DNA from: Deltaproteobacteria bacterium
Lineage (GTDB): Bacteria > Desulfobacterota > BSN033 > UBA1163
NCBI GenBank assembly: GCA_020059605.1
Contig: JAGVBT010000044.1
Location: 42,554-106,553, forward strand
Direction: 5' to 3'
Length of the DNA: 64,000 bases
This document shows, in pieces, positions 6,791 through 49,424 of the stretch. Numbering within the stretch: position 1 is the first letter of the stretch; each line of letters opens with the position of its first letter. Below the pieces are notes generated by a model that was not told the origin of the DNA, did no database searches, and saw only the letters and a program-made list of their open reading frames with translations. Both the position numbers and the translations under genes were made by a program.

Positions 6791-6834
6791 CAACATCACC
6801 CTTCACAGCCTTCCACCGAAGACCTGTTGTGAAG

Positions 6835-20350: not shown

Positions 20351-20377
20351 CCTTCGACAGGCTCAGAGTGAACGGGG
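20351..20377. repeat. Dispersed repeat family 2 (CTTCGACArGCTCAGrGTGAACGGGG), single copy
   Basis: CCTTCGACAGGCTCAGAGTGAACGGGG lies in the fabH/yihY intergenic region. It matches the copies at 37005-37038 and 39587-39661. Confidence 0.6.
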
Positions 20378-20422
20378 CGCGTAAAGAAGTGTTAGACGGA
20401 GTGCACTAATTCCTCTTTTTCG

Positions 20423-21751: not shown

Positions 21752-21897
21752 GGTGGCTTTCCATTTCTATTCGGAGTCAGCGAAAGGTCCGATGTTTTCC
21801 CCTCAAGACGTGGAAATTTTTATTCCTCATCCTTTAAGGGAAACAGGGAAAGTAGAGGTCGACAATGCATCCGTTTATTATTGTGCATCAGCGTTTC

Positions 21898-22356: not shown

Positions 22357-22400
22357 GTGAGACCCTCCTTTCTGTCTATGGTCTGAATGGGGTTCTATCA

Positions 22401-27358: not shown

Positions 27359-27643
27359 AGGGTACCTCCTTCAAGTGTTCAAAGCGGGTGTGGAATTAAT
27401 TTTTTGAAAACCTTTAAATTCACTCTATGGCAGTTTTAAAAATAAGGCAATAGAAAAATTATACATAGCGACATAATAAATTTCGCATAACCTTTGAAAA
27501 ATGTTCGAAATGAAGGATTTATCAGCTATCAGGATGGGCAGAAATGAATGACGCCATGTATAATAACTTCTTTTCCTCAATAATGTTAGGAGGATCGATT
27601 CTTCTCTTTTAAACGGACTCCAACTATGGTATCAGTTTAAAGC

Positions 27644-28288: not shown

Positions 28289-28402
28289 ATCAAGACTTTT
28301 CTTTATCATTCCCCTATTCCGAAATCCAAATGAGTGAAGCCAAGGTCAACCGAAATGTTTTGAGAAAGAAAAGGAGCTACCGGTCATGTGTTGAAGTGAG
28401 CC

Positions 28403-28430
28403 GTAAGTTGTTTTAGAACCAACGTCCCCT
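28403..28430. repeat. 28-nt element GTAAGTTGTTTTAGAACCAACGTCCCCT (copy 1)
   Basis: It is identical over 27 nt to 56049-56075. It is followed by GTCCCCTTTTTTATTGGGGGAC, a hairpin with a T-run, and lies upstream of priA. Confidence 0.7.
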
Positions 28431-28447
28431 TTTTTATTGGGGGACAT

Positions 28448-30907
28448 TTGACAAAACCAGTTAAAGGAGATAATTTGGGGTCGATGAAGACGATTGTCGA
28501 GGTGGCGGTCGGACTTCCTGTCTCAAGGACTTTTCACTACCTGATTCCCGAGCACATGAGAGGTTCCTTCCAGGTCGGAATGAGGGTGCTCGTTCCTTTT
28601 AAAGGGCGGAAGGTGACCGGCTTTGCCATCGATTTTTTAGACCGGCCCCCGGAAGGAATTGAAGAGAAGCTGAGAGAGGTGGAGGACCTCCTTGATGAAG
28701 CGCCCCTGATCGAACCGAAGATGCTCCGCTTCTACCGTTGGATTTCGGACTATTACCTCTATCCGCTGGGAGAGGTCATCAAGACCGGGCTTCCACCGGG
28801 GCTCCATTTAAAAAGCGAACTGATTTTAAGCCTGACCGCCGCCGGATTCGACTCTCTCCATCAGGGAAATTTAGGGCCGGCCGCGGAGAAGGTCCTGAGG
28901 GAGATCGCAAGATGCGGGAAGATTTCCTTGAAGGGGATACTAAAAACGTTTCCCAACTTTCCCTCGAGATCTCAACTCTTCTCCATGAAGAGAAAGGGAC
29001 TCCTCCATATGGAGGCAAGCCTGGAAGGCAAGGAAGTCAAGCCCAAACTCGAGAGAATTGTCCGTTATCAGGAGAGCGAATCTGTTCCACCGATCTCAAA
29101 AAAGGAGTCCGGGATCCTGAAATGGATAGAGGAGAGAAAAGAAATCTCTTATTCCGAATTGAATAAGAGATTCAAATCTCCTTCCAAATGCTTGCGGTCT
29201 CTCCAGGAAAAAAGACTCATTTCAATCATACCACGTGAGGTCTGCCGCAACCACTCGGTCCAATCCGAGCTCAATCCCTATCCAAAGCCCGAGCTCACTT
29301 CGGATCAGGAAAAAGTGCTCGGAGAGATCCTGAGGGGAATCGATTCGAAACGATACGCCCCCTTTCTCATCCACGGGGTCACAGGAAGCGGTAAGACGGA
29401 AGTTTACCTTCGGGCAATCGAAGCTGTTCTGCGCCAGGGAAGAGAGGCGATCATCCTTGTCCCGGAGATCTCGTTGACACCCCAGCTTCTTTCCCGTTTC
29501 AAGGACCGCTTCGAGGAGAACCTTGTTCTGCTCCACAGCGGGCTCGGAAGGGGGGAGCGCTACGACCAGTGGAGGAAGATCTGGAGGGGAGAGGCAAAGA
29601 TTGCCCTGGGGACGCGCTCCGCGATCTTTGCACCCTTTAAGAATGTGGGAATCATCATCGTGGACGAGGAGCATGATCCTGCCTATAAGCAAGAGGAAAA
29701 GTTGAAATATCATGCCAGAGATATTGCCGTCGTCAGGGTGAAAGAGGCCGAGGCGACACTTCTGCTCGGTTCAGCCACTCCTTCTTTGGAATCGTTCTAT
29801 AACGCGGAGAAGGGAAAATTCCGTCTGCTCGCTCTTCCCGAAAGGATCGAAGGAAAGTCCCTTCCGAAAGTGGAGGTGGTGGACATGAGGGGGGAGCAAG
29901 GCCTTCTCTCAGAGAAGTTGAAAGCGGCGCTCCGGAAGAATATCGAGGAGAAGAGGCAGAGCCTCCTCTTCCTTAACCGGAGGGGGTTTGCCAATTTTAT
30001 CCTCTGCCCGGAATGCGGCTTCACCTTCAAGTGTCCAAACTGCAGCGTCACACTCACCTACCATATGAGAGATCGCACCCTTCAGTGCCACTATTGCGAT
30101 TATCGAATCAAAGCGCCGGGGGACTGCCCGAAATGCGAAGGTCACCGTCTCCGGGGAATGGGAGTTGGAACGGAGCGCCTGGAACATGAGATAAAAGACT
30201 TATTTCCCGGAAAAGAGATAGGGCGGATGGATCGCGACACGACTACAAAGAGGCAATCTCATCAACAGATTCTTAAGGGGCTCCAGTCCGGGAAGACTGA
30301 CATCCTGGTCGGGACGCAGATGATTGTCAAAGGCCATGACTTCCCCAATGTGACCTTTGTCGGGGTGATCTCTGCCGATGCCTCCCTCCACTTCCCCGAC
30401 TTCCGCTCGGGCGAGAGAACCTTCCAGCTCCTCACGCAGGCGGCCGGGAGGGCGGGCAGAGGGGAAGCGGCCGGAGAGGTGGTGATCCAGACCCTTAACC
30501 CGGACCATTACAGCATCGTAAGGGCAAAGGATCATGACTTTGATGGATTCTACCGCGAAGAGATCGGATTCCGGAGATCCCTGGGTTATCCTCCTTTCTT
30601 CCGGTTCATCAATTTCAGGCTGACCGGAAACAGTGAGAAGGGAACCAAGACGCTGGCAGAGGAGATGGGAAGGATTGGACAGTCCCTCTTGAAAAGGGGG
30701 TTTGAAAAGGGAATTGAGCTTTTGGGCCCCAGTACAGCCCCATTTGTCAGGATGAAGGGCAAGTTCCGTATCCAGATGATAGCCAAAGGGGTAAACTCCC
30801 GGCTCCTTCATCAATTTGCCGAGGAGCTCGCCAAGAGGATGGAGGGTCAGATGAAGGGCCGGGGCATCCATCTGGATATTGATGTGGACCCGATCTTCCT
30901 CCTATAA
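28448..30907 (+). CDS. priA: Primosomal protein N' (replication restart helicase PriA)
   Basis: The N-terminal 3'-binding domain, the DEAH-box helicase motifs (GVTGSGKTEVY, DEEHD) and the Cys-rich zinc fingers CPECG...CPNC...CHYCDY...CPKC are present. The true start may be M13 (28484). Confidence 0.95.
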   Translation: MTKPVKGDNLGSMKTIVEVAVGLPVSRTFHYLIPEHMRGSFQVGMRVLVPFKGRKVTGFAIDFLDRPPEGIEEKLREVEDLLDEAPLIEPKMLRFYRWISDYYLYPLGEVIKTGLPPGLHLKSELILSLTAAGFDSLHQGNLGPAAEKVLREIARCGKISLKGILKTFPNFPSRSQLFSMKRKGLLHMEASLEGKEVKPKLERIVRYQESESVPPISKKESGILKWIEERKEISYSELNKRFKSPSKCLRSLQEKRLISIIPREVCRNHSVQSELNPYPKPELTSDQEKVLGEILRGIDSKRYAPFLIHGVTGSGKTEVYLRAIEAVLRQGREAIILVPEISLTPQLLSRFKDRFEENLVLLHSGLGRGERYDQWRKIWRGEAKIALGTRSAIFAPFKNVGIIIVDEEHDPAYKQEEKLKYHARDIAVVRVKEAEATLLLGSATPSLESFYNAEKGKFRLLALPERIEGKSLPKVEVVDMRGEQGLLSEKLKAALRKNIEEKRQSLLFLNRRGFANFILCPECGFTFKCPNCSVTLTYHMRDRTLQCHYCDYRIKAPGDCPKCEGHRLRGMGVGTERLEHEIKDLFPGKEIGRMDRDTTTKRQSHQQILKGLQSGKTDILVGTQMIVKGHDFPNVTFVGVISADASLHFPDFRSGERTFQLLTQAAGRAGRGEAAGEVVIQTLNPDHYSIVRAKDHDFDGFYREEIGFRRSLGYPPFFRFINFRLTGNSEKGTKTLAEEMGRIGQSLLKRGFEKGIELLGPSTAPFVRMKGKFRIQMIAKGVNSRLLHQFAEELAKRMEGQMKGRGIHLDIDVDPIFLL

Positions 30908-36083: not shown

Positions 36084-37034
36084 GTGAAATTGCAGGAAGC
36101 CTTTCGAGAGATTCAATGCCTTAAAAAGAGAGTCCGATCCCTTACCAAAGAGATTGAATCCATCAGGGGGATCTCGATAGAAGGGCCGTCTCCCGTGGAG
36201 GGGTTGCTTAGGATGAGAGGGATTCGGGTCTTCAGAAAAAATCCCGGCGATCGGCTCTTCTTCCCTTCCGACCTATCCGGATCCTGTCAAACCCGATTCT
36301 ATGAGATGATGAAGAGGTACTCCTTCCGGCTCGTGCTCCGGGATATGATCAAGAACCAGGATGGGTTTCGCATCCGGGATTTGACCCACTACTGCTCTTC
36401 AGAAGTCGTCCGGCGGTATTGTCAGATTCTCTGTGATATGGGAGTGATCATAAAGAGCGGAAGGGCGAGTTACCGGACCGGCGTCAGGCCCCTTTACAGT
36501 TTCGGGCCGACCTTAGAGTGGTTCATTGCCGAGATGTTTAAAAGGGAGTTCGCTTCCCCTGCCCTTTATGGAGTGAGCGTGAAGAAGACCCGCTCCGGCG
36601 GAGATTACGATGTAATGGGCTCCTGGAATCAGAGACTGGTCTATGCGGAGGTGAAGTCCTCCCCTCCCAAAGGGGTTGAACAGGCTGAGATCTCCACCTT
36701 CTTCTCAAGGCTGGAAGACCTCTTGCCCGATGTGGCCATCCTCTTCAATGATACTCAATTGAGGATGAAGGATAAACTGGTGGTGATGTTTGAGGAGGCA
36801 CTGAGCCGAAGATATGGAGAGGAGTCGAAAAAGCTTTATGCTGTGGAGAGGCTGATCGGAGAACTCTTCCATATCCAGCACCGTATCTTCATCGTCAACA
36901 GCAAAAAAGATGTGGCGGAAAATTTTGGGATCTGCCTCAGGGATTATCTGAGACACGGAACCCCTTCTCCCTCTTCTCGCCCCGTTGGGGTGGTGTCACA
37001 ATTAACCGTTCGCCCTGAGGTTCTCGAAGGGTGA
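36084..37034 (+). CDS. Hypothetical protein, with a predicted winged-helix domain followed by a PD-(D/E)xK-like motif
   Basis: GTG start overlapping the PflX stop. A coiled-coil N-terminus and a wHTH-like segment (RFYEMMKRYSFRLVLRDMIKNQDGFRIRDL) are present. GGDYDVMGSWNQRLVYAEVKS fits a D...E-x-K nuclease core. The last roughly 25 codons are encoded by dispersed repeats. Confidence 0.4.
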   Translation: MKLQEAFREIQCLKKRVRSLTKEIESIRGISIEGPSPVEGLLRMRGIRVFRKNPGDRLFFPSDLSGSCQTRFYEMMKRYSFRLVLRDMIKNQDGFRIRDLTHYCSSEVVRRYCQILCDMGVIIKSGRASYRTGVRPLYSFGPTLEWFIAEMFKREFASPALYGVSVKKTRSGGDYDVMGSWNQRLVYAEVKSSPPKGVEQAEISTFFSRLEDLLPDVAILFNDTQLRMKDKLVVMFEEALSRRYGEESKKLYAVERLIGELFHIQHRIFIVNSKKDVAENFGICLRDYLRHGTPSPSSRPVGVVSQLTVRPEVLEG

Positions 37035-37173: not shown

Positions 37174-38886
37174 GTGAAAAATAAAGAACTCGCTGACCTC
37201 TTCGATAAGATGGCGGATATCCTTGAATTCAAAAACGAGAATCCTTTCAAGACCAACGCCTATCGAAAGGCCTCGCGGGTTCTGGGCGATCTCACGCAGG
37301 ATATCGAAGGGGTTTCGGAGAGAGGGGAACTGAAAAAGATTTCAGGAATTGGCGAGGGAATCGCCCAAAAGATTGAAGAGTACCTAAAGACCGGAAAGGT
37401 CTCCAAATTTGAAGAGGTGAGAAAAGGGGTCGGGGATGAATTGATCGCCTTGATGGGTATACCGGGAATGGGACCGAAAACGCTTTCCCTCATTCATAAA
37501 GAGAAGGGGATTAAAAACTTATCCCAACTTGAAAAGGCCGTGAAGAATGGTTCCCTCATCGATCTTCCCGGGATGGGTGAGAAGAAGGTTGAAAACATCA
37601 AGCGGGGCATCCAGCTCCTCAAACAGAGTAAAGGAAGGATGAACCTGGGAATGGCCTTTCCCGTGGCAAAACGGATTGTTGAGTCCATGAGAGAGAGGAC
37701 AGGTTCAGAGAAGATCGAATGGGCAGGTTCCCTCCGGAGGATGAGGGAAAACATCGGAGACATCGACATCTTAGCCACTGGCCCCGACCATGAGAAGATC
37801 GTTCATGCCTTCACCCATCTCCCTGAAGTCAAAGAGGTCTTAACCTCCGGAGAAACAAAGGCTTCTATCATTGTTGAGGGAGGAATTCAGATTGACCTCC
37901 GGGTGGTGGAAGAGGGTTCCTATGGAGCGGCCCTTCAGTATTTCACAGGATCAAAAGCTCATAACATCCATCTCAGAGGAATTGCCAGGGCAAGAGGGAT
38001 TAAGATCAATGAGTACGGTGTTTTCAAAGGTGAGAAGAAGATCGGTGGCAAAGAAGAGAAGGATGTTTATAAAGCTCTTGGAATGGTTTGGATCGAACCT
38101 GAACTTCGGGAAGATCGGGGAGAGATCGAGGCGGCACAGAATCAGAACCTTCCCAAACTGATTGAGGAGTCTGAAATCAAGGGGGACTTTCATGTCCATT
38201 CCAACTGGAGCGACGGATCTTCTTCGATTGAAGAGGTCGCCAGGGCAGCTCAAAAGAAGGGCTATCAGTATATAGCGATCTGCGATCACTCCAAATCGTT
38301 AAAAATTGCCCACGGACTCGATGAGACAAGGCTGATAAAGCAGATGGAGGAGATCGACCGTCTCAATGAGAAGATGAAAGGATTTCAGATTTTAAAAGGA
38401 ACCGAAGTCGACATCCTGAGCGACGGAAGGTTAGATATTTCGGACAAGGTTCTGGAAAAACTCGATATTGTTGTTGCCTCTATCCACAGCGGTTTCAAGC
38501 AGGATAAGGAGAGGATGACCAAACGAATCCTAAAGGCTTTAGAGAATCCTTATGTCCACGTTCTCGGACACCCTACCGGCAGGCTTTTAGGAGCCAGGGA
38601 CCCCTATCAGGTTGAGATGGACGAGGTGATGAAGGCAGCCAGGAAATACGGAAAGGCGCTGGAGATCAATGCCTATTTCGAGCGCCTCGATCTGGATGAC
38701 CTCCACTGCCGGAAGGCAAAGGAGATGGGAATTCGAGTGGCCATCGGGACCGATTCCCACCATCTGGATCAGATGTGGGTGATGAGCCTTGGAATCGCGG
38801 TGGCCAGAAGAGGCTGGCTCGAAACTCAGGATGTCCTTAATGCCTTATCGCTTAAAGAATTCCTGAAGTGGTGTCACAAAAAATGA
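37174..38886 (+). CDS. Family X DNA polymerase with a C-terminal PHP phosphoesterase domain (PolX)
   Basis: The Pol-beta-like HhH and palm (GSLRRMRENIGDIDIL) and the PHP domain (HVHSNWSDG...) are present. Confidence 0.85.
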   Translation: MKNKELADLFDKMADILEFKNENPFKTNAYRKASRVLGDLTQDIEGVSERGELKKISGIGEGIAQKIEEYLKTGKVSKFEEVRKGVGDELIALMGIPGMGPKTLSLIHKEKGIKNLSQLEKAVKNGSLIDLPGMGEKKVENIKRGIQLLKQSKGRMNLGMAFPVAKRIVESMRERTGSEKIEWAGSLRRMRENIGDIDILATGPDHEKIVHAFTHLPEVKEVLTSGETKASIIVEGGIQIDLRVVEEGSYGAALQYFTGSKAHNIHLRGIARARGIKINEYGVFKGEKKIGGKEEKDVYKALGMVWIEPELREDRGEIEAAQNQNLPKLIEESEIKGDFHVHSNWSDGSSSIEEVARAAQKKGYQYIAICDHSKSLKIAHGLDETRLIKQMEEIDRLNEKMKGFQILKGTEVDILSDGRLDISDKVLEKLDIVVASIHSGFKQDKERMTKRILKALENPYVHVLGHPTGRLLGARDPYQVEMDEVMKAARKYGKALEINAYFERLDLDDLHCRKAKEMGIRVAIGTDSHHLDQMWVMSLGIAVARRGWLETQDVLNALSLKEFLKWCHKK

Positions 38887-38955
38887 ATTTCGGAATGCGG
38901 ATTGCGGAAAGCAGAATGCAGAAGGGAGAAGCAAACAGAAGGACTAGTAAGCGCA

Positions 38956-39234
38956 CTAAAGCCTCTTTATATATCGATCTGCCTCTTTTTTGCTGATAAC
39001 CCTGAGGATGACGATTTTCATAGACTGAATTTCGAAGAAGGCCCGAAACTTATCAATTCTCAGTCTGTAAAAAGTAGTCTTTTTACCTTTAATCTTCTTG
39101 ATCAATTTTCCCCTTGGGAAAGGGTTTTCTTTAAGGATCTTTAAATCCGAAACTACTTTTGTAACGATCCCCATTCCCAAATCATCCAGGTCCCTTGAGG
39201 CTGCCGGTGAGAGTTCGATCTTGAACCTATCCAT
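38956..39234 (-). CDS. RelE/ParE-family type II toxin
   Basis: 92 aa with the ...FYRLRIDKFRAFFEIQSMKIVILRV... RelE-like C-terminal pattern. It overlaps the upstream antitoxin. Confidence 0.65.
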   Translation of the reverse strand: MDRFKIELSPAASRDLDDLGMGIVTKVVSDLKILKENPFPRGKLIKKIKGKKTTFYRLRIDKFRAFFEIQSMKIVILRVISKKEADRYIKRL

Positions 39235-39490
39235 GCTTTGACTTTCTCTTTTTCAGATATTCATCGATTTCTATACCGCCAAGCTCCAGATATTCCTCTC
39301 TCGCTTTCTCCAGGGCGGCCTGAAACCTGGGATTGTTTTCAAGTAAGTAGTCTTCAAAATCGTCCTCTGAAATGCCTTTGATAATAGCCGTCGGTTTTCC
39401 CCTGGAGGTTACAACGACCTCCTCCTTTTCAGCCACTTTCAAAATTTCCGAAGTTTTGTTCTTAAGTTCCCTGACATTTGCAAATCTCAT
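39227..39490 (-). CDS. Phd/YefM-family antitoxin
   Basis: 87 aa with the Phd-like N-terminus MRFANVRELKNKTSEILKVAEKEEVVVTSRGKPTAII. There is an 8-nt overlap with the toxin gene. Confidence 0.7.
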   Translation of the reverse strand: MRFANVRELKNKTSEILKVAEKEEVVVTSRGKPTAIIKGISEDDFEDYLLENNPRFQAALEKAREEYLELGGIEIDEYLKKRKSKHG

Positions 39491-39586
39491 GGTTTTCTCC
39501 TTGTAGCTATATTCGTAGCTACAATATAAATCAATTATTTATTTCCGTCAAGCAAATTCCCCCCTTACCCCAATGCTCTTCACTTA

Positions 39587-39661
39587 AGCCGTTCGTGCTG
39601 AGCTTGTCGAAGCATGAACGGCTTAGCGACACACCCTTCGACAAGCTCAGGGTGAACGGGG
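39587..39661. repeat. Two inverted copies of the family-2 repeat forming a long composite palindrome
   Basis: GCCGTTCGTGCTGAGCTTGTCGAAGCATGAACGGC and CCCTTCGACAAGCTCAGGGTGAACGGGG. In the shadow ORF 39478..39738 it translates as ...LSLSKHERLSDTPFDKLRVNGD.... Confidence 0.7.
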
Positions 39662-39772
39662 ACAGCCTAACTGAACAGCACCACCCCTTACCCTCTTTTC
39701 TAAAGGGGGGATTGCAAACAAATATATGCTCTGAGTAATAAAAGAGAAAATTTGAACCCTCCCCCGATTTAT

Positions 39773-40705
39773 CTAAGATAAAAAATCTATGGCCAGCTTG
39801 TTGAACTTCTCCGGATACTCTTCGTGCGGGCTGTGTCCGGCCTTATCAAAGATCACCAATTTTGATCCATTCCAAAGACCATTTAATTTTTGTGACCGAT
39901 CTAAGGGAACGGCTTTATCCTCCCTACCGTGAATGATTAAGGTCGGTATGCTCATTTTGGACAAAAGGTTGGCTTCTTTTTCAACATACGGCTCTTTTAA
40001 GACATTACGTAGGATAAACATAAAACCAGCGGAAGATCCTTTGATACAAAGCGGCTGCAAGACTTCTTTACAATACTCCTCGGTTACCTTGTTTTTATCG
40101 TAGAACCATATCGTTTTAATATTGTTCTTCATCAAAGCATCTCCGGGAATGGCATTCATAAATTCACCAATAAAAGGGAACTGATAAATCTTGCCAATTG
40201 TCGTCATCGGCTGAGGGATAACGGTTGGGTCAACTAAAATAAGCCGATCAACCCTTCCGGGATGATGGGCAGCCACATAAACTGAAATCCCTCCACCCAT
40301 GGATTGTCCCACAAGAGTGGCTTTTTTGATATTCAGGGCATCCATGAATCCCACGATCTGTTTTCCATATCGTTCGAAGCTGTATTCCTTTTCCCCCAAT
40401 CTTTCGCTATACCCCCATCCCCAGAGGTCGATTGCGTAGACCTTAAATTTTTCGGCCAGGGCATCAATATTTTTCTTCCACATGACCGTATGATAGAGAA
40501 AGCCATGAATCAGTATGATGGGCGGGCCATTCCCGGCTTCCACATAGTGGACCTTTTTGCCATCTACGGTGACAAATTTCCCCTTGGCAAATTTTTGGAC
40601 AGCTTCCTCATAGGTACAGGTTTCTTTAGATGTCAATTGTGGGAGAATGATGATGAATAATACCAATGCGCCGACGATAATTAATAATGTGATGAATAAT
40701 TTCAT
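39773..40705 (-). CDS. Alpha/beta hydrolase-fold protein, membrane-anchored or secreted
   Basis: An N-terminal TM or signal segment and the nucleophile elbow GQSMGGG are present. The segment is AT-rich. Confidence 0.75.
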   Translation of the reverse strand: MKLFITLLIIVGALVLFIIILPQLTSKETCTYEEAVQKFAKGKFVTVDGKKVHYVEAGNGPPIILIHGFLYHTVMWKKNIDALAEKFKVYAIDLWGWGYSERLGEKEYSFERYGKQIVGFMDALNIKKATLVGQSMGGGISVYVAAHHPGRVDRLILVDPTVIPQPMTTIGKIYQFPFIGEFMNAIPGDALMKNNIKTIWFYDKNKVTEEYCKEVLQPLCIKGSSAGFMFILRNVLKEPYVEKEANLLSKMSIPTLIIHGREDKAVPLDRSQKLNGLWNGSKLVIFDKAGHSPHEEYPEKFNKLAIDFLS

Positions 40706-40916
40706 GGTTTCCTCCTTCTTTTCATTATGAACTGAGTCTTATCGGCTTGTCATTCCGGGGTTGAGTTAGCCTGCCCCGTACTCGATACGGGGGAATCCAG
40801 TGTTTTCCGGGATTTCCGCTTTCTCGGGAATGACGCCTTTTGCTACGATAAATGTCGCTGTGTATAATTCCTGTAATTTATTCCGAATTATTTTAAATTT
40901 GAACCCGTCCCCGATT

Positions 40917-40955
40917 TTACTATGGCTTTGCCGAGATTCTCATGTTAATTGGCAC
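40917..40955 (-). pseudogene. Degraded duplicate of the 3' end of the cyclase-STAND gene (fragment 1)
   Basis: The reverse complement encodes HENLGKAI..., matching the C-terminus of the 42476..45844 product ([14 protein letters not shown]...). Confidence 0.6.
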
Positions 40956-41031
40956 CTGTCTTTAATCCCATATTTGACAATTGTTACAAATGGGATTATC
41001 ATTGTAAACAAAACAAATTGGAGAAATCGAC

Positions 41032-41307
41032 ATGGCTGAAACTAAAATCTTGAAAACAGATTCGAGGGGACGAGTCGTTCTCCCTCCTCCTTTTCGAAGG
41101 GAATCTTTGTTCGAATATGCCGTTAAGGGTGATCAGATCATCCTCTATCCAGTCCGGACAGTCCGAAGATACCCCGATATGTCAGACCTGCCTGAAGAGG
41201 TTCTCTCCCCGGATTGGGTTGAAAGAGAGAAGAAAATTAATGCAGATACGCGACCCGGAATCGTTGCTCCAACCCCTTCAAAGGCGCTCAGAAAAAAGAA
41301 GAAATGA
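41032..41307 (+). CDS. AbrB/MazE/SpoVT-family antitoxin
   Basis: KILKTDSRGRVVLPPPFRRE is a swapped-hairpin motif. It is followed 6 nt later by the toxin gene. Confidence 0.6.
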   Translation: MAETKILKTDSRGRVVLPPPFRRESLFEYAVKGDQIILYPVRTVRRYPDMSDLPEEVLSPDWVEREKKINADTRPGIVAPTPSKALRKKKK

Positions 41308-41313
41308 CTTTCT

Positions 41314-41625
41314 ATGCCAGCGAAACCATTTCTCTTTGAACTCCACTTCGAAATCATCTTCTTGGAAAGCTATTCCCATTTGAAACCGGGTGAACAAAAA
41401 GCGATTGATAAAGCGGTCAGGTTTCTCAGTGCAAATCCTCGACATCCATCCCTCAATGTTCATAAGGGGAAAAACGTCAAAGGAAAGTATGCCGAGGGAG
41501 GAAATGATGTCTTCATCGCATATGCTTCGAAAAGTTTAAGACTCACCTTTGAATACGGTCCTCAACCGGGCATGATCGCCCTACGCAATTGTGGGCATCA
41601 TGAATCATGCGAAAGAAAAATGTGA
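41314..41625 (+). CDS. RelE/ParE-superfamily toxin (probable)
   Basis: 103 aa. The pattern ...KGKNVKGKY...DVFIAY..SLRLTFEY is RelE-like. It pairs with the AbrB-like gene. Confidence 0.45.
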   Translation: MPAKPFLFELHFEIIFLESYSHLKPGEQKAIDKAVRFLSANPRHPSLNVHKGKNVKGKYAEGGNDVFIAYASKSLRLTFEYGPQPGMIALRNCGHHESCERKM

Positions 41626-41649
41626 ACCCTCCCTAATTTCTTACAAAAG

Positions 41650-41760
41650 GGCTAACATTTCTTTTTCATATTTTTCGACCCAGCCGTCGGCGCCGCATTC
41701 TTTCAAGATTTCTATGGCTTTGCCGAGATTCTCATGTAGATTGGAACCCTTCTTTAATTT
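41650..41760 (-). pseudogene. Degraded duplicate of the 3' end of the cyclase-STAND gene (fragment 2, with its own stop)
   Basis: The reverse complement encodes ...[38 protein letters not shown]. The authentic end is ...[32 protein letters not shown]. The identical run TCGACCCAGCCGTCGGCGCCGCATTCTTT starts the copy here (41673-41701) and at 42510-42538. Confidence 0.75.
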
Positions 41761-41801
41761 CTACTCTTGACGTAATCAAAAAATTACGCTATTTTGATAG
41801 G

Positions 41802-42122
41802 GTGATTAAGCCAGACCCCTCTCTTGAGCCCGATTGGGATGAGGACAATATTGACCATATTGCCGAACATGGTCTTCGGCCGGAACAGGTTGAAGAAGTC
41901 TATTATGGTGAAGGGCCATTTCCTACTCTCGCTCTTAAAACTAAAAAACAAAAGGGTCGAGTTGCCGAGTATCGTTATCGGTTATGGGGGACTGATGCAT
42001 CGGGAATGTATATCGAAGCCATTATTGCCCCATACCCTGAATTTAGGCTTTGGAGGTGTGTTACCGCATTCCCCATGTCACCCTCCACACAGAAAGCCTA
42101 TTTAAGGAGAATCAAAAAATGA
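41802..42122 (+). CDS. BrnT-family (DUF497) ribonuclease toxin
   Basis: 106 aa. ...WDEDNIDHIAEHGLRPEQVEEV... is the BrnT pattern. Confidence 0.6.
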   Translation: MIKPDPSLEPDWDEDNIDHIAEHGLRPEQVEEVYYGEGPFPTLALKTKKQKGRVAEYRYRLWGTDASGMYIEAIIAPYPEFRLWRCVTAFPMSPSTQKAYLRRIKK

Positions 42123-42406
42123 AGAAAATTCCTCTCAAAATCAAAAAGAAGCTAAAAAGCGAGGCTAAAACATGGGATTCTTCTATTTCTCAAGAGAAGC
42201 CCAAAGAGGTATCCAGGCTGATCGAAAAAGCAGATTTATTTGTCGCCTACCGGCCTCCTCGGCAACCCGTTTCAGTGCGCTTAGATCCCTTCGACCTTGC
42301 ATTATTAAAGCGGATTGCCCGTAATAAAGGACTCCCTTTCACCCAGCTTATGTCCATGTGGCTGCACGAAAAAGTTGAGCAGGAGAAAACCAGAGTCGGA
42401 GCTTAA
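42119..42406 (+). CDS. BrnA-family antitoxin
   Basis: The start is at ATG 42119, with an ATGA overlap on the BrnT stop. The C-terminal RHH-like ...VSVRLDPFDLALLKRIARNKGLPFTQLMSMWL is present. Confidence 0.55.
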   Translation: MKKIPLKIKKKLKSEAKTWDSSISQEKPKEVSRLIEKADLFVAYRPPRQPVSVRLDPFDLALLKRIARNKGLPFTQLMSMWLHEKVEQEKTRVGA

Positions 42407-42475
42407 GTATATGCTCCTGAATCCCATTAATCCTCTAATGTAAACCCATCCCCAATTTCTACTATTCCGCTAATT

Positions 42476-45400
42476 TCACAAAGGCTGAGCCAATACTTTC
42501 TCGTACTTCTCGACCCAGCCGTCGGCGCCGCATTCTTTGAGAATCTCTATGGCCTTGCCGAGATTCTCCTGGGCTTTTAATCTATCCCCTTTTCGTTTAA
42601 ACAACTCTGCATAAAGAGCATAATCATTTCCCAGGTGGAACATCGTTCGATTTCTCTGATCGGCTTCAATGGCCTTCTGAATCCAATACTCTGCTTCAGA
42701 TAAGTGCTGGTCATCAATGTTAAGCAGAATCTCTCCGATAAGTCTTTGCATCCCACCTTCGGCTGCCTTTACTTTATTGTTTCGTGAATGCACATACAAA
42801 GATTCCAAATCCACACCCTTTTCTTTATTCATCACTTTCGATCTTGCTATAGCAACTCTTCCCCACCCCACCCAGGAAGGCCATAAACGATTGCGCTCGA
42901 AAGCCGAAATCCCTTTTTCGAAACGTTCTTTAGAGCCCTGGAAATTTCCCATTTCAAAATAGGTATCTCCCAGGTGATATTGGTTTCCCGCATCCCAGCC
43001 AGAAATATTAATCTTTTCACAAAATTCGAACCCCTTCAGCAGGTATTTTTCAGCTTCTTCAAGCAATCCTTTCCCATAGCAGGAAGTTCCGTGACTTGAA
43101 TATGCTATTGCCTTTGAATAAATATCACCGCTCTCTTCAGCAATCTGGAGGCCTTCATTCGAAGTCTTGAATTGCAGATCTATTCTCCCATGGTACCAAT
43201 GAGAAAAATAGGCCAAATTACTCATCGTTACCGCAATGCCCCAAAAATTTTTTGCTGCCACATTAATATCAATAGCTCTTTGTGAAAATTTAATTGCTCT
43301 TTCAAATTCGCAGTTCGCCCCTAAAGCATATCCAAACCAGCTACTTGCTAAAACTAAACTAACAATATCTTTTATCTCTTCCGATATTTTTAGGGCTTCC
43401 TCAAATGCTTTAAATGCCTCTGGATAATTTTCTTCTCCAGACCAATAGTATGTTCCGAGAATCATGTATATGTGAGAAAGTCTCCTTTTATAATCACGTT
43501 TGATGGCCAAATCAATAATTGGATCTATGGCTTCTTTGGCCTCAACAAAATGGTTCATTTGAGCGATATAAAGTCCAAGAACCGTCCTGGCATCGACAAT
43601 CTGTTTTTCAATATTCGCTGCCTGGGTTAATCGCTCAAGAGATGCTATTCTCGTCTTTGCATAAGCAATCGCATCATTAAACGAAGCTGTCTTCTCGGCC
43701 CTCCTGCTTGCCAACCTCGAATACTCAGCGCATTTTGAATAATTCTCACTCAAGAGGTAGTGTCCGGATAATACTTCATAACATTCACTTAAATTATCCT
43801 TGTAAAGTTCCTCGATATTGTTCCCAATCTCCTCATGAAGTTTCTTCTTCCTTTTGGCCAAGATGGAATTATAAACCACCTCACGAGTTAAAGCGTGTTT
43901 GAAGACATAATTCGATTGAGGGTATATGCCTCTTTCATAAAGAAGTTCTGAGTCTTTAAGGATAGAAAGGTAAGAGAGCAGGTCTTTTTCTGGGAGGCCC
44001 ATAATGCGGTTTATCAATGGATAACTAAACTCTCTCTCAATGACAGACCCGCTTTGGAGCACCTCTTTTGCCCTCTCAGGTAAGGAATCTACTCTTGCCA
44101 TAATCACATCCTGGAGTGTTAAAGGAATGGTCAGCTCATGGATATCTTTTGATAAACGAAATTTGTTATCTTCTCTCTCTATGATTCTTAATTCTCTCAG
44201 GGACTGTATAAACTCTTCAATGAAAAAAGGGACTCCTTCTGTCTTCTCCAGGATCAATTCCTCAAGTGATTTTTCAATCTCTTTTGTCCCTAAAATATGG
44301 GTTGCCATCTCAAGGCTCTCCCTATTCGAGAGCCGATGCAACGTTAATTGATTGTGATAAGACTTTGCGCCCCAGGTGTGTAAAAACTCAGGCCGGTAGG
44401 TAAATATTAATAACACCCTTGCTCCCGGGATGCTCTCCAAATTGTTTCTTAATACGTCCTCTGAACTCTTATCCAGCCAGTGCAGGTCTTCAAATGCCAT
44501 CACCAGAGGCCGTATCTCAGACCCTCTAAGAATGATCCGTTTTATTGATTCAATAATCCTATCTTTCTTTGATTCAGGGCTCATGGAAATCTGTTCGATC
44601 CCACTATCCTTGACTGAGAGAAGCTCAAGGAGATATGGGAGAGTCGAGGCTTCATCGACTCCTATTAATCTCAACCCTCTTGTGACTTTTTCTTTGATTT
44701 CCTGGTCCCCTTCTCCTTCATGAATATCGAAGTTTGACTTCAGGATGTCTATCACCGGGTGATAAGCTACCCCCCTGCTGTAGGAGAGGCATTTCCCTTC
44801 CAAAAAGGTTACATTTTCGTTGACTATTGCCTTCCTGAATTCATACAAAAGCCTCGATTTACCACAACCGGCCTCAGATACAATAGAAAACGCCTGGCCC
44901 TTTCCTGATTTGGCTCTCGTAAATCCATCGAGCAGAAGCTCAAGCTCACGTTCCCTTCCAACAAAGGGAGTCAGCCCGCGCTCAGCACTGACATCAAATC
45001 TTGTCCTTCTCGTGCTGGGAGCGATCACCTGAAAAACCTTTATGGGTTCTTCCTTGCCCTTAACATTTTTTTTCCCCAAAGCCTCAAACCTAAAAAACCC
45101 CTCCGTGAGTTTGAAGGTATCTTCGGTCACATAGGTTGTTCCTGGTTCTGCCAAGCCTTCCATTCGGGATGATAGATTCACCGTATCTCCAACCGCCTTG
45201 AACTCAACCCGAAGATCATTACCCAAGCTACCCACCACCACAGGACCTGTGTGAATACCAATACGCATCTTAATTGGCGTTATTCTGCTTTCGATTTTGA
45301 GCTGATCGCTGAACTTGCTCATCTCCCGATGGATGGTTAATGCAGATCGAATTGCACGCTGTGGAGCGTCCTCCAGAGCAATCGGCGCCCCAAAAAGAGC

Positions 45401-45844
45401 CACAATCCCATCACCGGTTAATTCGTTGACAGTCCCTTCATAATCATGGACCTTGTGGATGAGGATTTCGTAAACCTGATCCATCATGGAGTAAGCTTCC
45501 TCAGGACCGAGCTTTTCGGTAAGTCCCGTATACCCCTCCATGTCACAGAACATCACCGTGACCTGTTTGCGTTCACCTTCAATTCGGTCGCGTTGAGATA
45601 AGATTTTTTCGGTTAGACCCCCGGGAAGGTATTTTTGAATCTTGGCTATCTTCTCATCAAAGGAAAGTTCTCTGGTGAGCGGTTTTGAAGGAAGGGTTAA
45701 GTCGTGGCCACACTCACCACAGAATTTGAATTGAGGAGGGTTTGAAGAATTGCAATGGGGACAGATCTTTTCTAATTTGGCACCACACTCCCCACAAAAC
45801 TTCAAGTTTTCGGGATTTTCAGTCTGACATTTTGGGCATTTCAC
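42476..45844 (-). CDS. Multidomain signalling protein: double zinc ribbon, class III adenylate/guanylate cyclase, STAND-type AAA ATPase and TPR repeats
   Basis: The N-terminal CPKCQ...CGECG / CPHCN...CGECG is a double zinc ribbon. The cyclase core has [10 protein letters not shown]...[11 protein letters not shown]...[10 protein letters not shown]. The Walker A is [11 protein letters not shown]. The C-terminal roughly 450 aa are TPR-like. The gene is AT-rich. Confidence 0.8.
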
Positions 45845-45983
45845 TCTTTTCCCCCTTCAATTGCATGATACTAAATAAATTGGGTGCCCCTAATTTTATT
45901 CGGCTGGCGGAAGGGTCTTCATCCGAAACGCCTTGCTCTATAGGTTTCCAGCACTGAAAAGATAGTCATCCTTGATACGTTCC

Positions 45984-47378
45984 TCATCGATTAGCATCTG
46001 TTCCATGAGCAGGCATACCCAAAAACTCACCCGTGATGCGTAGCACAGCATCCGCATCACCAAAGAAAGGCATATGAATACTTCCTTCTAATGGAACGAA
46101 GCGAGAGTTTGGAATCAAAGATGCCATCTCCCTCCCAAGATGGAATGGCATAGCCTTGCAACCCTTACGATGAATCACCAATGTAGGAACATGTAATCTG
46201 GGGAGAAGGTCTGTCACATCAAGGTCATATGTAAGATCTAACAATTTTGCAGCCATTTCTGCAGTAGCTGCCTCACGCTGTAAACGGATAACCCATTTGA
46301 GGGTAGAAACATCAGCGCCGGGTAAGAACATATCAGCCAAGGCCTTAGAACCAACTCCCCAGGCAGAACGAATCAGGGATGTAAAAGACTCCTTGAATTC
46401 CTTTGTAGTTATTGCCTCACCATTAGCATAAGAATCGAATAAGATTAAATGTGAAACACGTCTTGGATACTTAATTGCATAAGCGATGGCAACAGGACCA
46501 CCACAAGAAAATCCACACAATGCGAAACGTTTGAGCTTAAGATGGTCAATAACAGCCTCCAATGACCGAACCTCCGACTCTAATGTAAATTCTGTTCTGT
46601 TCCGTTCAGAAAGGCCACAGCCGTGTCTATCGTAAAGTACAAAGGTTTGATTACGAGTTCCTTTCTCTAAGTATTCACGTGTAAATGGATGTTCCCATTG
46701 TAACTGTAAATGACTGACCCATGCCGGAGGAAAAACCAAAAATGGTCCTTGGCCTACCACGGAGTAAGCGATGCGGACTCCATCAACGGTAGTGCAGAAT
46801 TGAATATGCTGGTCTATCACCTCCGCTGGAGAAAAAGTTCCACGCCCTATCAATACTCGATAAACCCTCACCGGCTTTGCAATATTCTTAACCGTTTGTT
46901 CGCCAAGATTCTCATAGCTTAACCCAAGTTTACCCTCAACTTGATCATAAGCTGTTCCTGAGATGCAGATCCCTCCGCCATTGGCCAGGCTCTGAACCCG
47001 AGCGGTGACATTGACTCCGTCACCGTAGATCCGCTCCCCTTCCTCAACAACATCTCCAAGATTGATCCCGATTCGAAATTCCATCCTGCTCTTTTCAGGT
47101 AGCTCAGCATTCTTTAGTTTGAGTTCCTTTTGGATTTCCACTGCACATTGCACAGCCTCTACGACACTAACAAATTCAGCTAAAAGATTATCTCCAGGGG
47201 AATCTACGACGCGCCCTTTGTGCTGTCTGATGAAGTTGGCCATGATTTCTCTATAAGTGGTTAGAGTCCGGATGGTCTCAATTTCATTCTCCTCCATGAG
47301 GCGGCTGTAACCTTTAACATCTGCACTGAAAATGGCAGCAAGCTTACGTTTAACCTCTTGGCTGTTCATGAAATTCAC
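45984..47378 (-). CDS. Class III adenylate/guanylate cyclase fused to an alpha/beta hydrolase domain
   Basis: The cyclase core has FSADVKGYSRLM...GDNLLAEF...RIGINLGDVV. The hydrolase part has GFSCGG (GxSxG) and downstream catalytic residues. Confidence 0.75.
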   Translation of the reverse strand: MNFMNSQEVKRKLAAIFSADVKGYSRLMEENEIETIRTLTTYREIMANFIRQHKGRVVDSPGDNLLAEFVSVVEAVQCAVEIQKELKLKNAELPEKSRMEFRIGINLGDVVEEGERIYGDGVNVTARVQSLANGGGICISGTAYDQVEGKLGLSYENLGEQTVKNIAKPVRVYRVLIGRGTFSPAEVIDQHIQFCTTVDGVRIAYSVVGQGPFLVFPPAWVSHLQLQWEHPFTREYLEKGTRNQTFVLYDRHGCGLSERNRTEFTLESEVRSLEAVIDHLKLKRFALCGFSCGGPVAIAYAIKYPRRVSHLILFDSYANGEAITTKEFKESFTSLIRSAWGVGSKALADMFLPGADVSTLKWVIRLQREAATAEMAAKLLDLTYDLDVTDLLPRLHVPTLVIHRKGCKAMPFHLGREMASLIPNSRFVPLEGSIHMPFFGDADAVLRITGEFLGMPAHGTDANR

Positions 47379-47559
47379 CCTCTAAAGGTTCTTAGGTTGG
47401 AAGAAGAGAACGCTGAAGAAAATATGAATCCGTCCTCAGTTGTGAATGATATAGGTTTATCGAGATGATCCACCTAACAGAACAAGAGGTTCTATTAAGT
47501 GGCAGATAGGCACATTTTGAGGCTCTTTCTCATTTAGAATACTGTGGTAACGGTGTCCA

Positions 47560-47994
47560 TTACTGAATTACTGACCCTGTCTCAGCTTTTCGAAAATACT
47601 GGCAGAGGGAGATCAGGATCTTTCTCTGGAGGCCCGGAACCGTATCAAGCAAATGGTCAAAAGATTTGCTGTTTACGATCAACAGGGTCATATCAGTTTC
47701 AGCAATGACCGTTGCGGTTCGGGGGCCCCTGTCAATGAGGGAGACCTCGCCAAAAAAGTCGCCTGAAGCCAGACGGTTTATCACCTTACCGCCTTTCTCG
47801 ACTCGGGTTTTACCCTCTAAGATGAAAACGAATTCCCATCCCATATCCCCCTGCTCGGCCAGGACCTTGCCAGCTTTGACCGACAACTGATCTGCATACT
47901 TGGCAATCTCGTTCAGATGGCGGTTGCTAAGATTACTAAACATGGGTACCTTTTTAAGGAGTTCGACCTTTTCGGAACGCCGGCGGAGTAGCAT
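47560..47994 (-). CDS. Standalone cyclic-nucleotide-binding domain protein
   Basis: 144 aa. The CAP-like cNMP pocket is ...FGEVSLIDRGPRTATVIA.... There is no output domain. Confidence 0.7.
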   Translation of the reverse strand: MLLRRRSEKVELLKKVPMFSNLSNRHLNEIAKYADQLSVKAGKVLAEQGDMGWEFVFILEGKTRVEKGGKVINRLASGDFFGEVSLIDRGPRTATVIAETDMTLLIVNSKSFDHLLDTVPGLQRKILISLCQYFRKAETGSVIQ

Positions 47995-48095
47995 CCTTCT
48001 CCTCCTTTATGAAATGATTTCTTTTTAGGTAATGGGTTCTGATGGAAGTGTAATATGATGGAAATGTATCAAAATTCATTCACCAAAGTCAAGGA

Positions 48096-48914
48096 TTAAA
48101 ACCAGCCGAGAGCCTTTTTGATCTCGTCGGCAAATTGGGGGAAGGGGGAAGGAGTAAAGGAGAGGAAGAAGACCAGGAACATGAAGCCCCCGATCACTTT
48201 TCGCTTTCCATCGATAGGGGTTTGATCATCGAGCGGCATGGGGTGGCGGAAACCAAAGAGGATCATGAGGATGAGCAGGAGAATCCATCCGGGATTGTAG
48301 AAGATCGTGATAAAGCCCATGACTGCAATGGCGATGAGGAAGATGGCGCGGCTCCTTTTTCCGAAGAGGGCATAGGCGATGTGGCCCCCGTCCAATTGTC
48401 CCACCGGAATCAGATTGAGGGCGGTGACGAAGAGACCGACCCATCCGGCATATCCGATCGGATGGAGCAAAACATCAAAGCCTTCCGGAACCTTTCCCAT
48501 CACCAGTTTCTGAATAAATGCAAATAGAAAAGGGTCCGCAAGGTGGATGGTCCCTTCTCTCAGATGGGAGGTTGGGATGACTTCGGAAAGCTTTAAGCCA
48601 ATAGCGATGGCGGGAATGCTCAAGATGAGGCTGACCAGTGGGCCTGCCACTCCCGTGTCGAAGAGTGCTTTCCTTGAGGAGAGGTGGCCTTCCATCCGGA
48701 TAACAGCCCCCAGCGTTCCAAAAGGCGACAGAGGGAAAGGCAGAAAGAAGGGCAACGTGGCTTTTATCCCATGCCTCCGGGACATGAAGTAGTGACCCAT
48801 TTCATGTCCCAGGAGGATGAGGATAATGGCAATGGAGTAACCCGGTCCTCCGGTCATCCAGGTGGAGGCCACCGTCAGGATGAAGAGAAGGAGATGGATG
48901 GCTTTCCGGCGCAT
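48096..48914 (-). CDS. Site-2 protease family (M50) intramembrane metalloprotease
   Basis: HEMGHY (HExxH) sits in a TM helix. It is a multi-TM protein with a second conserved LDGG motif. Confidence 0.75.
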   Translation of the reverse strand: MRRKAIHLLLFILTVASTWMTGGPGYSIAIILILLGHEMGHYFMSRRHGIKATLPFFLPFPLSPFGTLGAVIRMEGHLSSRKALFDTGVAGPLVSLILSIPAIAIGLKLSEVIPTSHLREGTIHLADPFLFAFIQKLVMGKVPEGFDVLLHPIGYAGWVGLFVTALNLIPVGQLDGGHIAYALFGKRSRAIFLIAIAVMGFITIFYNPGWILLLILMILFGFRHPMPLDDQTPIDGKRKVIGGFMFLVFFLSFTPSPFPQFADEIKKALGWF

Positions 48915-48923
48915 GAAAAAGGG

Positions 48924-49016
48924 TTATTTCTTCTTCTTGTGACGATCCCGGTCTAATTGCTTTTTGTGTTTATGCTTACGCATCTTCTTTCGTCTCTTTT
49001 TGACAACACTTCCCAT
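48924..49016 (-). CDS. Small basic protein resembling ribosomal protein bS22 (DUF1713-like), 30 aa
   Basis: It translates as MGSVVKKRRKKMRKHKHKKQLDRDRHKKKK, the MGSV-KKRRK-M-K-KHKK pattern of bS22-type proteins. It lies 9 nt upstream of the S2P gene. It is below the ORF-track length cutoff. Confidence 0.5.
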   Translation of the reverse strand: MGSVVKKRRKKMRKHKHKKQLDRDRHKKKK

Positions 49017-49049
49017 AGGCTGTTCTCCTTCGTTGGTTTAGACCGGGGG

Positions 49050-49283
49050 TTAATCGACAATCACATTCGTCTGGGTCCTTAAAACGCCCGAAAGCCCCTG
49101 GATTTTGGTGACGATGAAATCGCCAAGGATATTGATATCCGGTGCCTCCACCAGAGCGATCACGTCATAGGGACCCGTTGTTGCATTCGCCCGCTTCACT
49201 CCCTGGATCTTGGTGGCCTCTCTGGCCACATCCCTGGCAGTCCCTGCGGTGCATTCAATAAAAACATAAGCAGAGATCGGCAT
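49050..49283 (-). CDS. Lrp/AsnC-type standalone ligand-binding (RAM) domain protein
   Basis: 77 aa with the ...VFIECTAG...VKRANATTGPYDVIALVEAPD... fold pattern. Confidence 0.6.
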   Translation of the reverse strand: MPISAYVFIECTAGTARDVAREATKIQGVKRANATTGPYDVIALVEAPDINILGDFIVTKIQGLSGVLRTQTNVIVD

Positions 49284-49424
49284 ACGATCACCTCCTTTGA
49301 GGATTAAATTATCCCAATTCGCTTACAATTTCAAGTCGAAAAGAGGATCAAAAGGAAAAGGGGGCTTAGAAAATCATTGGACAACCCCGGGAGGAAGGTC
49401 CAGAGGTTGAAGTTATACCCATAT

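Follow-up and report, generated by a model that had tools for sequence, protein, structure and literature searches.

We analysed a stretch of 64,000 nucleotides (nt) of DNA from a Deltaproteobacteria bacterium (GenBank assembly GCA_020059605.1, contig JAGVBT010000044.1, positions 42,554 to 106,553), hereafter the window, and studied the GC-poor block which follows the gene of PolX, a family X polymerase of DNA repair. This block is probably a 9.2-kb variable accessory islet, not mobile by itself, that occupies a recombination hotspot between the convergent genes of PolX and of an S2P/M50 membrane metalloprotease in an uncultured bacterium of the Thermodesulfobacteriota related to sulfate reducers, was inserted at the 3' end of the S2P gene and has since been remodelled stepwise. 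An earlier note on this DNA had described an AT-rich island at 38890-47400 with three toxin-antitoxin (TA) modules, an alpha/beta hydrolase and two nucleotide cyclases, and had proposed that it was acquired horizontally, probably in several steps. Below, loci of relatives are designated by L numbers.

The borders of the island were set by comparison with relatives that lack it. Homology of L005 and L009 to the window ends at 38873, within the last codons of PolX, and that of L005 picks up again exactly at 48096, the S2P stop codon; the island is therefore redefined as 38887..48095 (no strand; GC 43%, GC3, i.e. GC at third codon positions, 0.48, odd tetranucleotide usage), with the gene for a cyclic nucleotide (cNMP)-binding protein inside it. 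Thus PolX (37174..38886, plus strand; Pfam HHH_8, DNA_pol_B_thumb and PHP) was rightly named as the left neighbour, whereas the right edge lies at 48095 rather than 47400 and the neighbour on that side is not the cNMP-binding gene but S2P (48096..48914, minus strand; Pfam Peptidase_M50), the target gene whose 3' tail is duplicated, which is followed by panB and panE.

The composition of the block was compared by sliding GC content, GC3 and tetranucleotide usage, with the 64-kb window as the only reference, and by each of these the block deviates from the rest. GC content is 43.4% for 38890-47400 versus 50.7% for the remaining window (window mean 49.7%), and the lowest-GC stretch of 8.5 kb anywhere in the 64 kb starts at 38955. 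In windows of 300 nt the block spans 37-48% and the flanking genes about 48-53%, so that the drop reported earlier is real, though its figures (from about 55% to 36-45%) are not. Mean GC3 is 0.48 in the island open reading frames (ORFs) versus 0.61 in 45 outside ORFs (Mann-Whitney p = 9e-6), and the tetranucleotide correlation with the rest of the window (4-kb windows) is 0.81 in the block versus 0.89-0.96 elsewhere. The islands of relatives are likewise GC-poor, with 41-45% against 47-50% in adjacent core DNA. There is a second, milder GC-poor stretch in the window at 20000-28500 (GC 44-49%, tetranucleotide correlation 0.89-0.93), whose genes look like ordinary envelope and housekeeping genes (BrkB/YihY-Rrf2, MscL, a 1414-aa AsmA/DUF748 protein, DUF4197, RsmG); because of it, low GC alone is weak evidence of foreign DNA here.

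Homologues of PolX with 79-93% identity are found in metagenome-assembled genomes of uncultured "Deltaproteobacteria", Syntrophaceae, Syntrophorhabdus and Thermodesulfobacteriota. In six relatives (L005, L009, L011, L115, L117 and L125; PolX 66-85% identical) the convergent S2P gene lies within about 60-120 bp of PolX with no gene between, and at least ten other relatives carry different subsets or orders of the island modules, i.e. the site is fixed in the chromosome and the island is present or absent. The expectation that relatives would have PolX directly beside the cNMP-binding and S2P genes was accordingly borne out for S2P and not for the cNMP-binding gene, which is itself part of the island and is missing in all six island-free alleles and in L197. 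In PolX trees the deepest lineages with PolX-S2P synteny (L011, L009 and L115) are island-free and the island-bearing alleles form the crown; two further lineages outside the crown, L010 and L086, have unrelated genes downstream of PolX. Moreover, two groups of island alleles retain a trace of the insertion itself. Between PolX-proximal DNA and the REP copy of the hydrolase (see below), L008 carries a relic of the S2P tail ending in PAPFPEFADQIKQTFNRF, and L002, L084 and L085 carry one ending in FAEEIKQTFNRF at the same position, both of them diverged copies of the S2P C-terminus (compare PSPFPQFADEIKKALGWF*). The derived ending is common to both copies, as are the bases downstream of it, so both go back to one ancestral event, and an S2P-tail relic beside PolX argues for insertion into the 3' end of S2P with duplication of the tail and not for loss in the island-free relatives. 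Thus the ancestral order was PolX beside S2P, and DNA went into the 3' end of the latter. In the window the ParE/Phd module, together with its flank, has taken the place of the S2P relic.

The closest relatives differ from the window, and from each other, in which modules they hold. In L001 and L081 the order is PolX, ParE-Phd, hydrolase, FMN oxidoreductase, AbrB-RelE, followed in L081 by a broken cyclase and unrelated genes. L002 and L084 have a PIN-RHH (ribbon-helix-helix) pair in the place of ParE/Phd, then the S2P relic, the hydrolase, AbrB-RelE and the cyclase; L008 has an RHH gene, the S2P relic, hydrolase, BrnTA and cyclase; and L003 has ParE-Phd, hydrolase, an unknown ORF with PIN, and the cyclase. 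Shorter forms are L006 (nitroreductase, BrnTA, cyclase) and L142 (ParE-Phd, BrnTA, cyclase, with neither hydrolase nor AbrB-RelE). In L164 the order of BrnTA and AbrB-RelE is reversed relative to the window, in L197 the large cyclase directly follows S2P and the cNMP-binding and cyclase-hydrolase genes are both missing, and L190 has additional cyclase/hydrolase genes in a different order, with the cyclase-hydrolase fusion placed elsewhere. The content of the island has therefore changed module by module since its insertion. Different subsets, replacements and orders in the closest relatives fit acquisition in several steps, as had been proposed; the word "horizontal" in that proposal holds as exchange within the clade, with no match to a foreign donor. 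In L081 (15458-17161) and L082 we also observed that the large cyclase gene is split into pieces of 439 and 119 aa and that a DUF4143 fragment and AllF/AllG/AllH stand in place of S2P on the downstream side, an allele produced by decay and rearrangement of the islet.

The junctions between the modules are marked by repeats. The last 100 nt or so of the large cyclase gene are the source of two relics inside the island: relic 1 (40918..40966, minus strand; identified as direct-repeat family D1 and by alignment) is a truncated cyclase 3' tail, present in full length at the same place in L001 and L002, and relic 2 (41646..41763, minus strand) is a full tail of about 30 codons with its stop, shares its inner junction with relic 1 and is collinear with BrnTA in L006. 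Relic 2 is 85% identical to 42491-42571 over 81 nt (D2; 91.5% over 59 nt by blastn), and across copies and species the tails are 85-92% identical versus 72-80% between species for the body of the gene. The 22-nt motif AAATYGGGGRNGGGTTYAMATT, which we call REP for reasons given below, comes after the cyclase gene tail as well as after each of the two relics, and a fourth copy follows the hydrolase stop codon. All four copies lie on the minus strand: copy b (39749..39770, exact) directly after the hydrolase stop, copy a (40896..40917, exact), a degenerate copy with four mismatches (41619..41640) directly after relic 2, and copy c (42437..42458, exact) 18 nt past the cyclase stop codon. Within the 64-kb window the motif is confined to the island (three exact matches versus 0.11 expected by chance), where no copy was found between the cyclase and cNMP-binding genes. 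As a consequence of the repeated unit of cyclase tail and REP, the AbrB-RelE and BrnTA pairs each sit between direct repeats.

Several breakpoints between alleles coincide with these copies. The exchange of ParE-Phd for PIN-RHH has its right breakpoint at 39760, inside REP copy b, where the homology of L002 begins; the hydrolase, which is found in most island alleles and missing in L142, is bounded by REP copies when L008 is compared with L142; and AbrB-RelE, an insertion when compared with L008, begins at 40918, immediately past copy a, which is thus its left breakpoint. We infer from this that modules may have entered, left or been swapped by recombination at the REP and cyclase-tail repeats. 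One route would be single-crossover (Campbell-type) integration of circular fragments carrying a tail and a REP; another would be exchange of alleles between related strains via the conserved flanks. The repeats may actively drive the turnover of modules.

A metagenome scan shows what the 22-nt motif is. It occurs in at least 120 metagenome stretches, mostly with unrelated flanks (134 left-flank clusters among 165 copies in the fetched loci and the window), and this dispersal rules out a motif specific to the island. Its conserved block is gAAATtGGGGACGGGTTCACATTt. Among the 110 copies listed, an inverted partner lies at most 130 nt downstream of 31 and upstream of one. An ORF ends no more than 30 nt before 48 of the copies, and for 28 of these its stop codon begins no more than 5 nt from the motif. 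Pfam Y1_Tnp matches four of the 148 motif-adjacent ORFs scanned. These ORFs point to RAYT-like proteins of about 230 aa, in which an HVH motif was read and which match NCBIfam REP_Tyr_transpos ("REP-associated tyrosine transposase") with E = 1e-21 and 77 bits, just under the cut-off of 80; among the matches listed, a full-length RAYT-like gene is bracketed by inverted motif copies in L094 (1563-2341), L101, L106, L146, L176, L183 and L200. Since it flanks RAYT genes elsewhere and brackets them as inverted copies, the motif is, in this lineage, the REP that belongs to a RAYT family; its inverted doublets correspond to REPINs. As in known REP/REPIN systems with a RAYT of the HUH Y1 family, a unit of 22-24 nt (gAAATYGGGGACGGGTTCA(C/A)ATTt) is dispersed, stands after stop codons, often forms inverted doublets and brackets RAYT-like genes; in contrast to them, one unit by itself lacks self-complementarity, the four copies of the island stand singly and in one orientation, and the RAYT-like proteins stay under the profile cut-off. 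No RAYT gene was found within the window, a sequence search of solved structures for RAYT gave nothing useful, and a literature search with the motif sequence returned no relevant match. A resemblance of the motif to a tRNA T-arm (GGGTTCAAAT) had been entertained and was dropped once the RAYT association was found. REP doublets were also seen in intergenic spacers around PolX in some relatives (L196:5208-5345; L115:7886-8008; L117:3314-3357), and in the island-free L115, L117 and L125 a doublet fills the entire PolX-S2P spacer and touches both stop codons.

The unit of gene tail and REP could itself be an attachment site, so that TA cassettes would be cut out and inserted again via REP, at host gene 3' ends, in parallel to an integron; the enzyme would then be the RAYT transposase of the lineage or another recombinase. 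We consider this cassette exchange unlikely. In a census of flanks, most cases with the same right flank and different left flanks were REPIN or RAYT insertions, and only two clusters concerned the island.

To estimate the age of the parts, the window was compared with one partner genome at a time at four-fold degenerate sites, with PolX and the radical SAM gene as core. The TA genes are less diverged than the core in L002 (0.10 versus 0.28, Fisher p = 7e-4) and in L001 (0.16 versus 0.30, Fisher p = 0.04), and they are also under the core for L003, L006 and L008, where the differences are not significant. The hydrolase has a core-like four-fold divergence of 0.24-0.41 (L001, L002, L004 and L008; PolX alone 0.31-0.45); it is thus old, and its low GC is no mark of recent arrival. 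These values suggest that the islet is old, that the TA pairs were exchanged most recently, among related lineages, and that the hydrolase is an old resident.

Several observations weigh against an inserted and stepwise remodelled islet. The core-like synonymous divergence of the hydrolase shows that part of the island is old, and the genes at 20-28.5 kb show that ordinary genes can be GC-poor too. The island-free L005, L117 and L125 nest in the island-bearing crown, where the PolX tree is poorly resolved, and because of this nesting clean losses or allele replacements must be assumed. The window has neither an S2P-tail relic nor REP at its outer edges, so the signature of insertion comes from relatives only. 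The right breakpoint of the AbrB-RelE insertion, at 41763/41764, lies away from any REP, and since the usual place of a REP is just behind a stop codon, the copies at module borders could follow from the location of intergenic DNA and not be a cause of rearrangement. Furthermore, two of the three TA assignments depend on profile matches under threshold, and every function in the island is deduced from domains.

The first of these observations would also be expected if the region were ancestral to the clade and had been deleted several times, its low GC reflecting the kind of gene (weakly expressed accessory genes) and not a foreign origin. Such a history would account for the age of the hydrolase, the three nested island-free alleles and the ordinary genes in the other GC-poor stretch, and the direct REP repeats could drive deletions. 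We nevertheless hold it improbable: the deeper L011, L009 and L115 are island-free, the S2P-tail relic beside PolX is expected from insertion, the core is older than the TA pairs, and the module order is permuted between alleles.

The right-hand part of the island encodes proteins with cyclic-nucleotide domains. The large cyclase (42476..45844, minus strand, 1122 aa) consists by Pfam of a double zinc ribbon, a class III nucleotide cyclase, an AAA_16 NTPase and TPR repeats; its nearest solved cyclase domains are CyaB (3r5g) and Cya2 (2w01), its metal-binding Asp residues are present and its Walker A motif (GCGKS) is intact. At the position of the adenylate-specifying Lys it has Glu, as does the guanylate cyclase Cya2 (NELTGD, residues ~140-150). 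The second protein (45984..47378, minus strand, 464 aa) is a fusion of a class III cyclase with a C-terminal alpha/beta hydrolase (Pfam Guanylate_cyc and Abhydrolase_1), with 3mr7, "adenylate/guanylate cyclase/hydrolase", as best solved match (E = 8e-38) and with Asp at the Lys position (VVDSPGD, residues ~55-62). The third is a stand-alone cNMP-binding protein (47560..47994, minus strand, 144 aa; Pfam cNMP_binding, E = 1e-18) with an intact phosphate-binding cassette, GEVSLIDRGPRTA. Because both cyclases lack the ATP-specifying lysine, their products may be other than cAMP. The domain sets match those of mycobacterial multi-domain class III cyclases (Rv0386, cyclase-NTPase-TPR; LipJ/Rv1900c, hydrolase-cyclase) and of PDB 3mr7, whereas the island fusion has its cyclase at the N-terminus, the reverse of the order in LipJ, and the island proteins differ from the mycobacterial type by the N-terminal double zinc ribbon and by Glu or Asp in place of the adenylate-specifying Lys.

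An anti-phage defence island, with the cyclases and the cNMP-binding protein as a Pycsar-like cyclic-nucleotide system, or with a STAND-type sensor and a cyclase effector, and with the TA pairs acting in abortive infection, would be another explanation of this gene set. TA clusters are often found alongside defence genes, the gene of a cyclase adjoins that of a cNMP-binding protein as in Pycsar, and the PADLOC profile PycC matches both cyclases (E = 4e-20 and 4e-7), while PycTIR matches the 144-aa protein through the cNMP-binding part of that profile (E = 5e-15). The missing adenylate-specifying Lys would also suit such a role, as would the NTPase-TPR body of the large cyclase, the fastest-diverging gene of the island (65-83% aa identity). 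The PADLOC matches, however, are confined to the cyclase and cNMP-binding domains held in common, a generic cyclase model from Pfam gives a higher score (87.5 versus 70 bits), and the other eight island proteins scanned have no PADLOC match. Membership in Pycsar was rejected, as the match of the 144-aa protein is limited to positions 30-139 of the PycTIR profile (288 positions) and the protein lacks a fused effector, that is any TIR, transmembrane or other effector domain; besides, cyclase-NTPase-TPR and cyclase-hydrolase are architectures of ordinary bacterial signalling cyclases. A defence island is thus an improbable reading of the locus. Since the Pycsar matches are at domain level only and the cNMP-binding protein has no effector domain, the most economical reading of the two class III cyclases and the cNMP-binding protein is an accessory cyclic-nucleotide signalling set, a role predicted from their domains.

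The layout of the island could also suggest a self-mobile integrative element or its remnant (an island, a mobilisable element or a prophage) that inserted site-specifically in the 3' end of S2P by its own integrase or by one acting in trans, with TA miniature elements stacked in tandem at the site of tail and REP. A duplicated 3' tail of the target gene is the classic footprint of an integrase, and such tails occur for S2P (L008 and L002) and for the cyclase (the window, L001, L002, L006 and L164); the TA pairs each lie between direct repeats, and their order varies between alleles. Tandem accretion of integrative elements at one attachment site is known, e.g. from the ICE/CIME arrays of streptococci, and the island resembles these in its succession of gene, repeat, module, repeat, module and repeat, with the 3' end of the target gene in the repeat; unlike in such arrays, the modules measure only 0.7-0.8 kb, no integrase is known for them and the repeat includes a REP. 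We regard a self-mobile element as quite improbable. By Pfam domains, no gene for an integrase, excisionase, relaxase, transposase or phage protein was found in the island or among the scanned flanking ORFs at 34-51 kb, 8 kb of island DNA had no match in plasmid and phage records, and no direct repeats were found in the window at the outer edges of the island. There is no tRNA gene in the window, and an insertion targeted to a tRNA was rejected for this reason; the hydrolase, moreover, co-diverges with the core genome. An integron-type cassette array that has lost its integrase, i.e. an attC cluster, is highly improbable, for although small promoter-bearing TA cassettes stand in an array with a recurring boundary sequence and vary in content and order among relatives, as in integron arrays with TA cassettes, the boundary units, taken as single strands, fold no better than shuffled sequences do (z = -0.8 to +0.45), the boundary is a fixed 22-nt sequence that demonstrably belongs to the REPs of a RAYT family and not a structure-conserved attC, the modules lie on both strands and no IntI integrase was seen in the scanned ORFs of island and flanks.

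The remaining genes of the islet were examined by profile scans, which bore out the earlier gene list, with two of the TA pairs below threshold. The first pair consists of ParE1, a toxin of the ParE/RelE superfamily (38956..39234, minus strand, 92 aa; Pfam ParE_toxin 30.2 bits, cut-off 23), and the Phd/YefM antitoxin Phd1 (39227..39490, minus strand, 87 aa; Pfam PhdYeFM_antitox 34.8 bits, cut-off 29.8; NCBIfam TIGR01552); the antitoxin gene comes first, the genes overlap by 8 nt and both partners exceed the profile cut-off. It is followed by the alpha/beta hydrolase (39773..40705, minus strand, 310 aa; Pfam Abhydrolase_1, E = 1e-35), which has an N-terminal hydrophobic segment and a GQSMG nucleophile elbow. 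The second pair is a putative AbrB/MazE-type antitoxin (41032..41307, plus strand, 91 aa; Pfam MazE_antitoxin 22 bits, under the cut-off of 24.7) with ParE2, a RelE/ParE-like toxin (41314..41625, plus strand, 103 aa; Pfam ParE-like_toxin 17.5 bits, under the cut-off of 28). A promoter-like site with 11 of 12 matches stands upstream of the AbrB-type gene at 40974-41002 and is overlapped by a palindrome (40963-40998), the pair stays together in at least six loci, and of the 378 homologues of ParE2 several bear the JGI name RelE and one the NCBI name "cytotoxin". The third pair, in toxin-first order, is a BrnT-like toxin (41802..42122, plus strand, 106 aa; Pfam BrnT_toxin E = 0.027, under cut-off), with 32% identity, across 91% of its length, to a protein annotated as "BrnT family toxin" on a Deinococcus gobiensis plasmid (tblastn, E = 5e-4), and a BrnA-like ribbon-helix-helix (CopG-type) antitoxin (42119..42406, plus strand; Pfam CopG_antitoxin 20.7 bits, cut-off 28, and DUF6290, both under cut-off), whose probable start is the ATG at 42119, overlapping the BrnT stop as ATGA. 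The BrnA-like protein had no match in plasmid records, and sequence searches of solved structures gave nothing useful for the RelE-like toxin and BrnT. By their family assignments, the three type II TA pairs would act as selfish or stabilising modules. At L099 (1574-2594) BrnT-BrnA comes right after an AbrB-type antitoxin gene and the RelE-like toxin is lacking between them, which looks like a hybrid or partly deleted form of the two TA cassettes. The frame "orf79" at 40800-41039 was rejected as a gene because it overlaps the cyclase-tail relic on the opposite strand and has no family match.

The earlier note had described a composite palindrome, its "family-2" element, at the left edge of the island. 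The palindrome exists (39585..39661, no strand; 24-nt arms 88% complementary with a nested 15-nt pair) and folds stably as DNA (dG -24.8 kcal/mol, z = -6.1), whereas its position as edge fails: it lies 700 nt inside the island, and L001 and L142, otherwise collinear, lack the segment 39567-39690 that holds it. Exact copies of the element were found only in the window and in L207, which is a piece of the same genome. The palindrome is a small insertion of its own, made later inside the island, and no edge marker. Half-sites of "family-2" (CTTCGACAAGCTCAGSRYGAACGG) recur sporadically, in the window at 20352-20375 and 37006-37029 and in L007, L129, L161, L001 and L002; the one at 37006 falls in the last codons of a 316-aa gene that precedes PolX, a place at which L002/L084 have conserved it. 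This ORF (36084-37034, plus strand, between the radical SAM gene and PolX) has no Pfam match and is kept in position, with 54-89% identity, in relatives whose contigs cover the site. On the other side of the island the gap between S2P and panB is only about 0.5 kb in the window (48915-49424), while L005 (10873-14204) and L009 (12602-16879) have an extra 3.3-4.3 kb there, which in L005 encodes a TRAP transporter (DctP, DctQ and DctM), and L197 has about 4.4 kb at the same site; this difference in presence and absence adjoins the island and has no REP copies at its borders. The sole Rfam match in the window is a cobalamin riboswitch (RF00174, 101.9 bits) at 6826-7031 on the minus strand, far from the island.

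In kind the islet is ordinary; its internal anatomy is instructive. It shares with known genomic islets and variable hotspots rich in type II TA pairs the place between conserved convergent core genes, presence and absence among close relatives, mosaic content, atypical GC and codon usage, several TA pairs and the lack of mobility genes. It differs from them in its host, an uncultured member of the Thermodesulfobacteriota, in a hydrolase as old as the clade, and in the REP copies at the borders of TA pairs and hydrolase, two of which also carry duplicated 3' tails of a resident gene. It thus serves as an illustration of the growth of an accessory islet in a lineage known from metagenomes only. 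Its corrected borders keep the cNMP-binding gene from being read as core, and the false "orf79" is removed. In addition, a lineage-specific REP with its RAYT is defined and is expected to recur elsewhere in these genomes. Should the REP and tail repeats turn out to be active sites of recombination, this would link REP elements to the turnover of gene cassettes.

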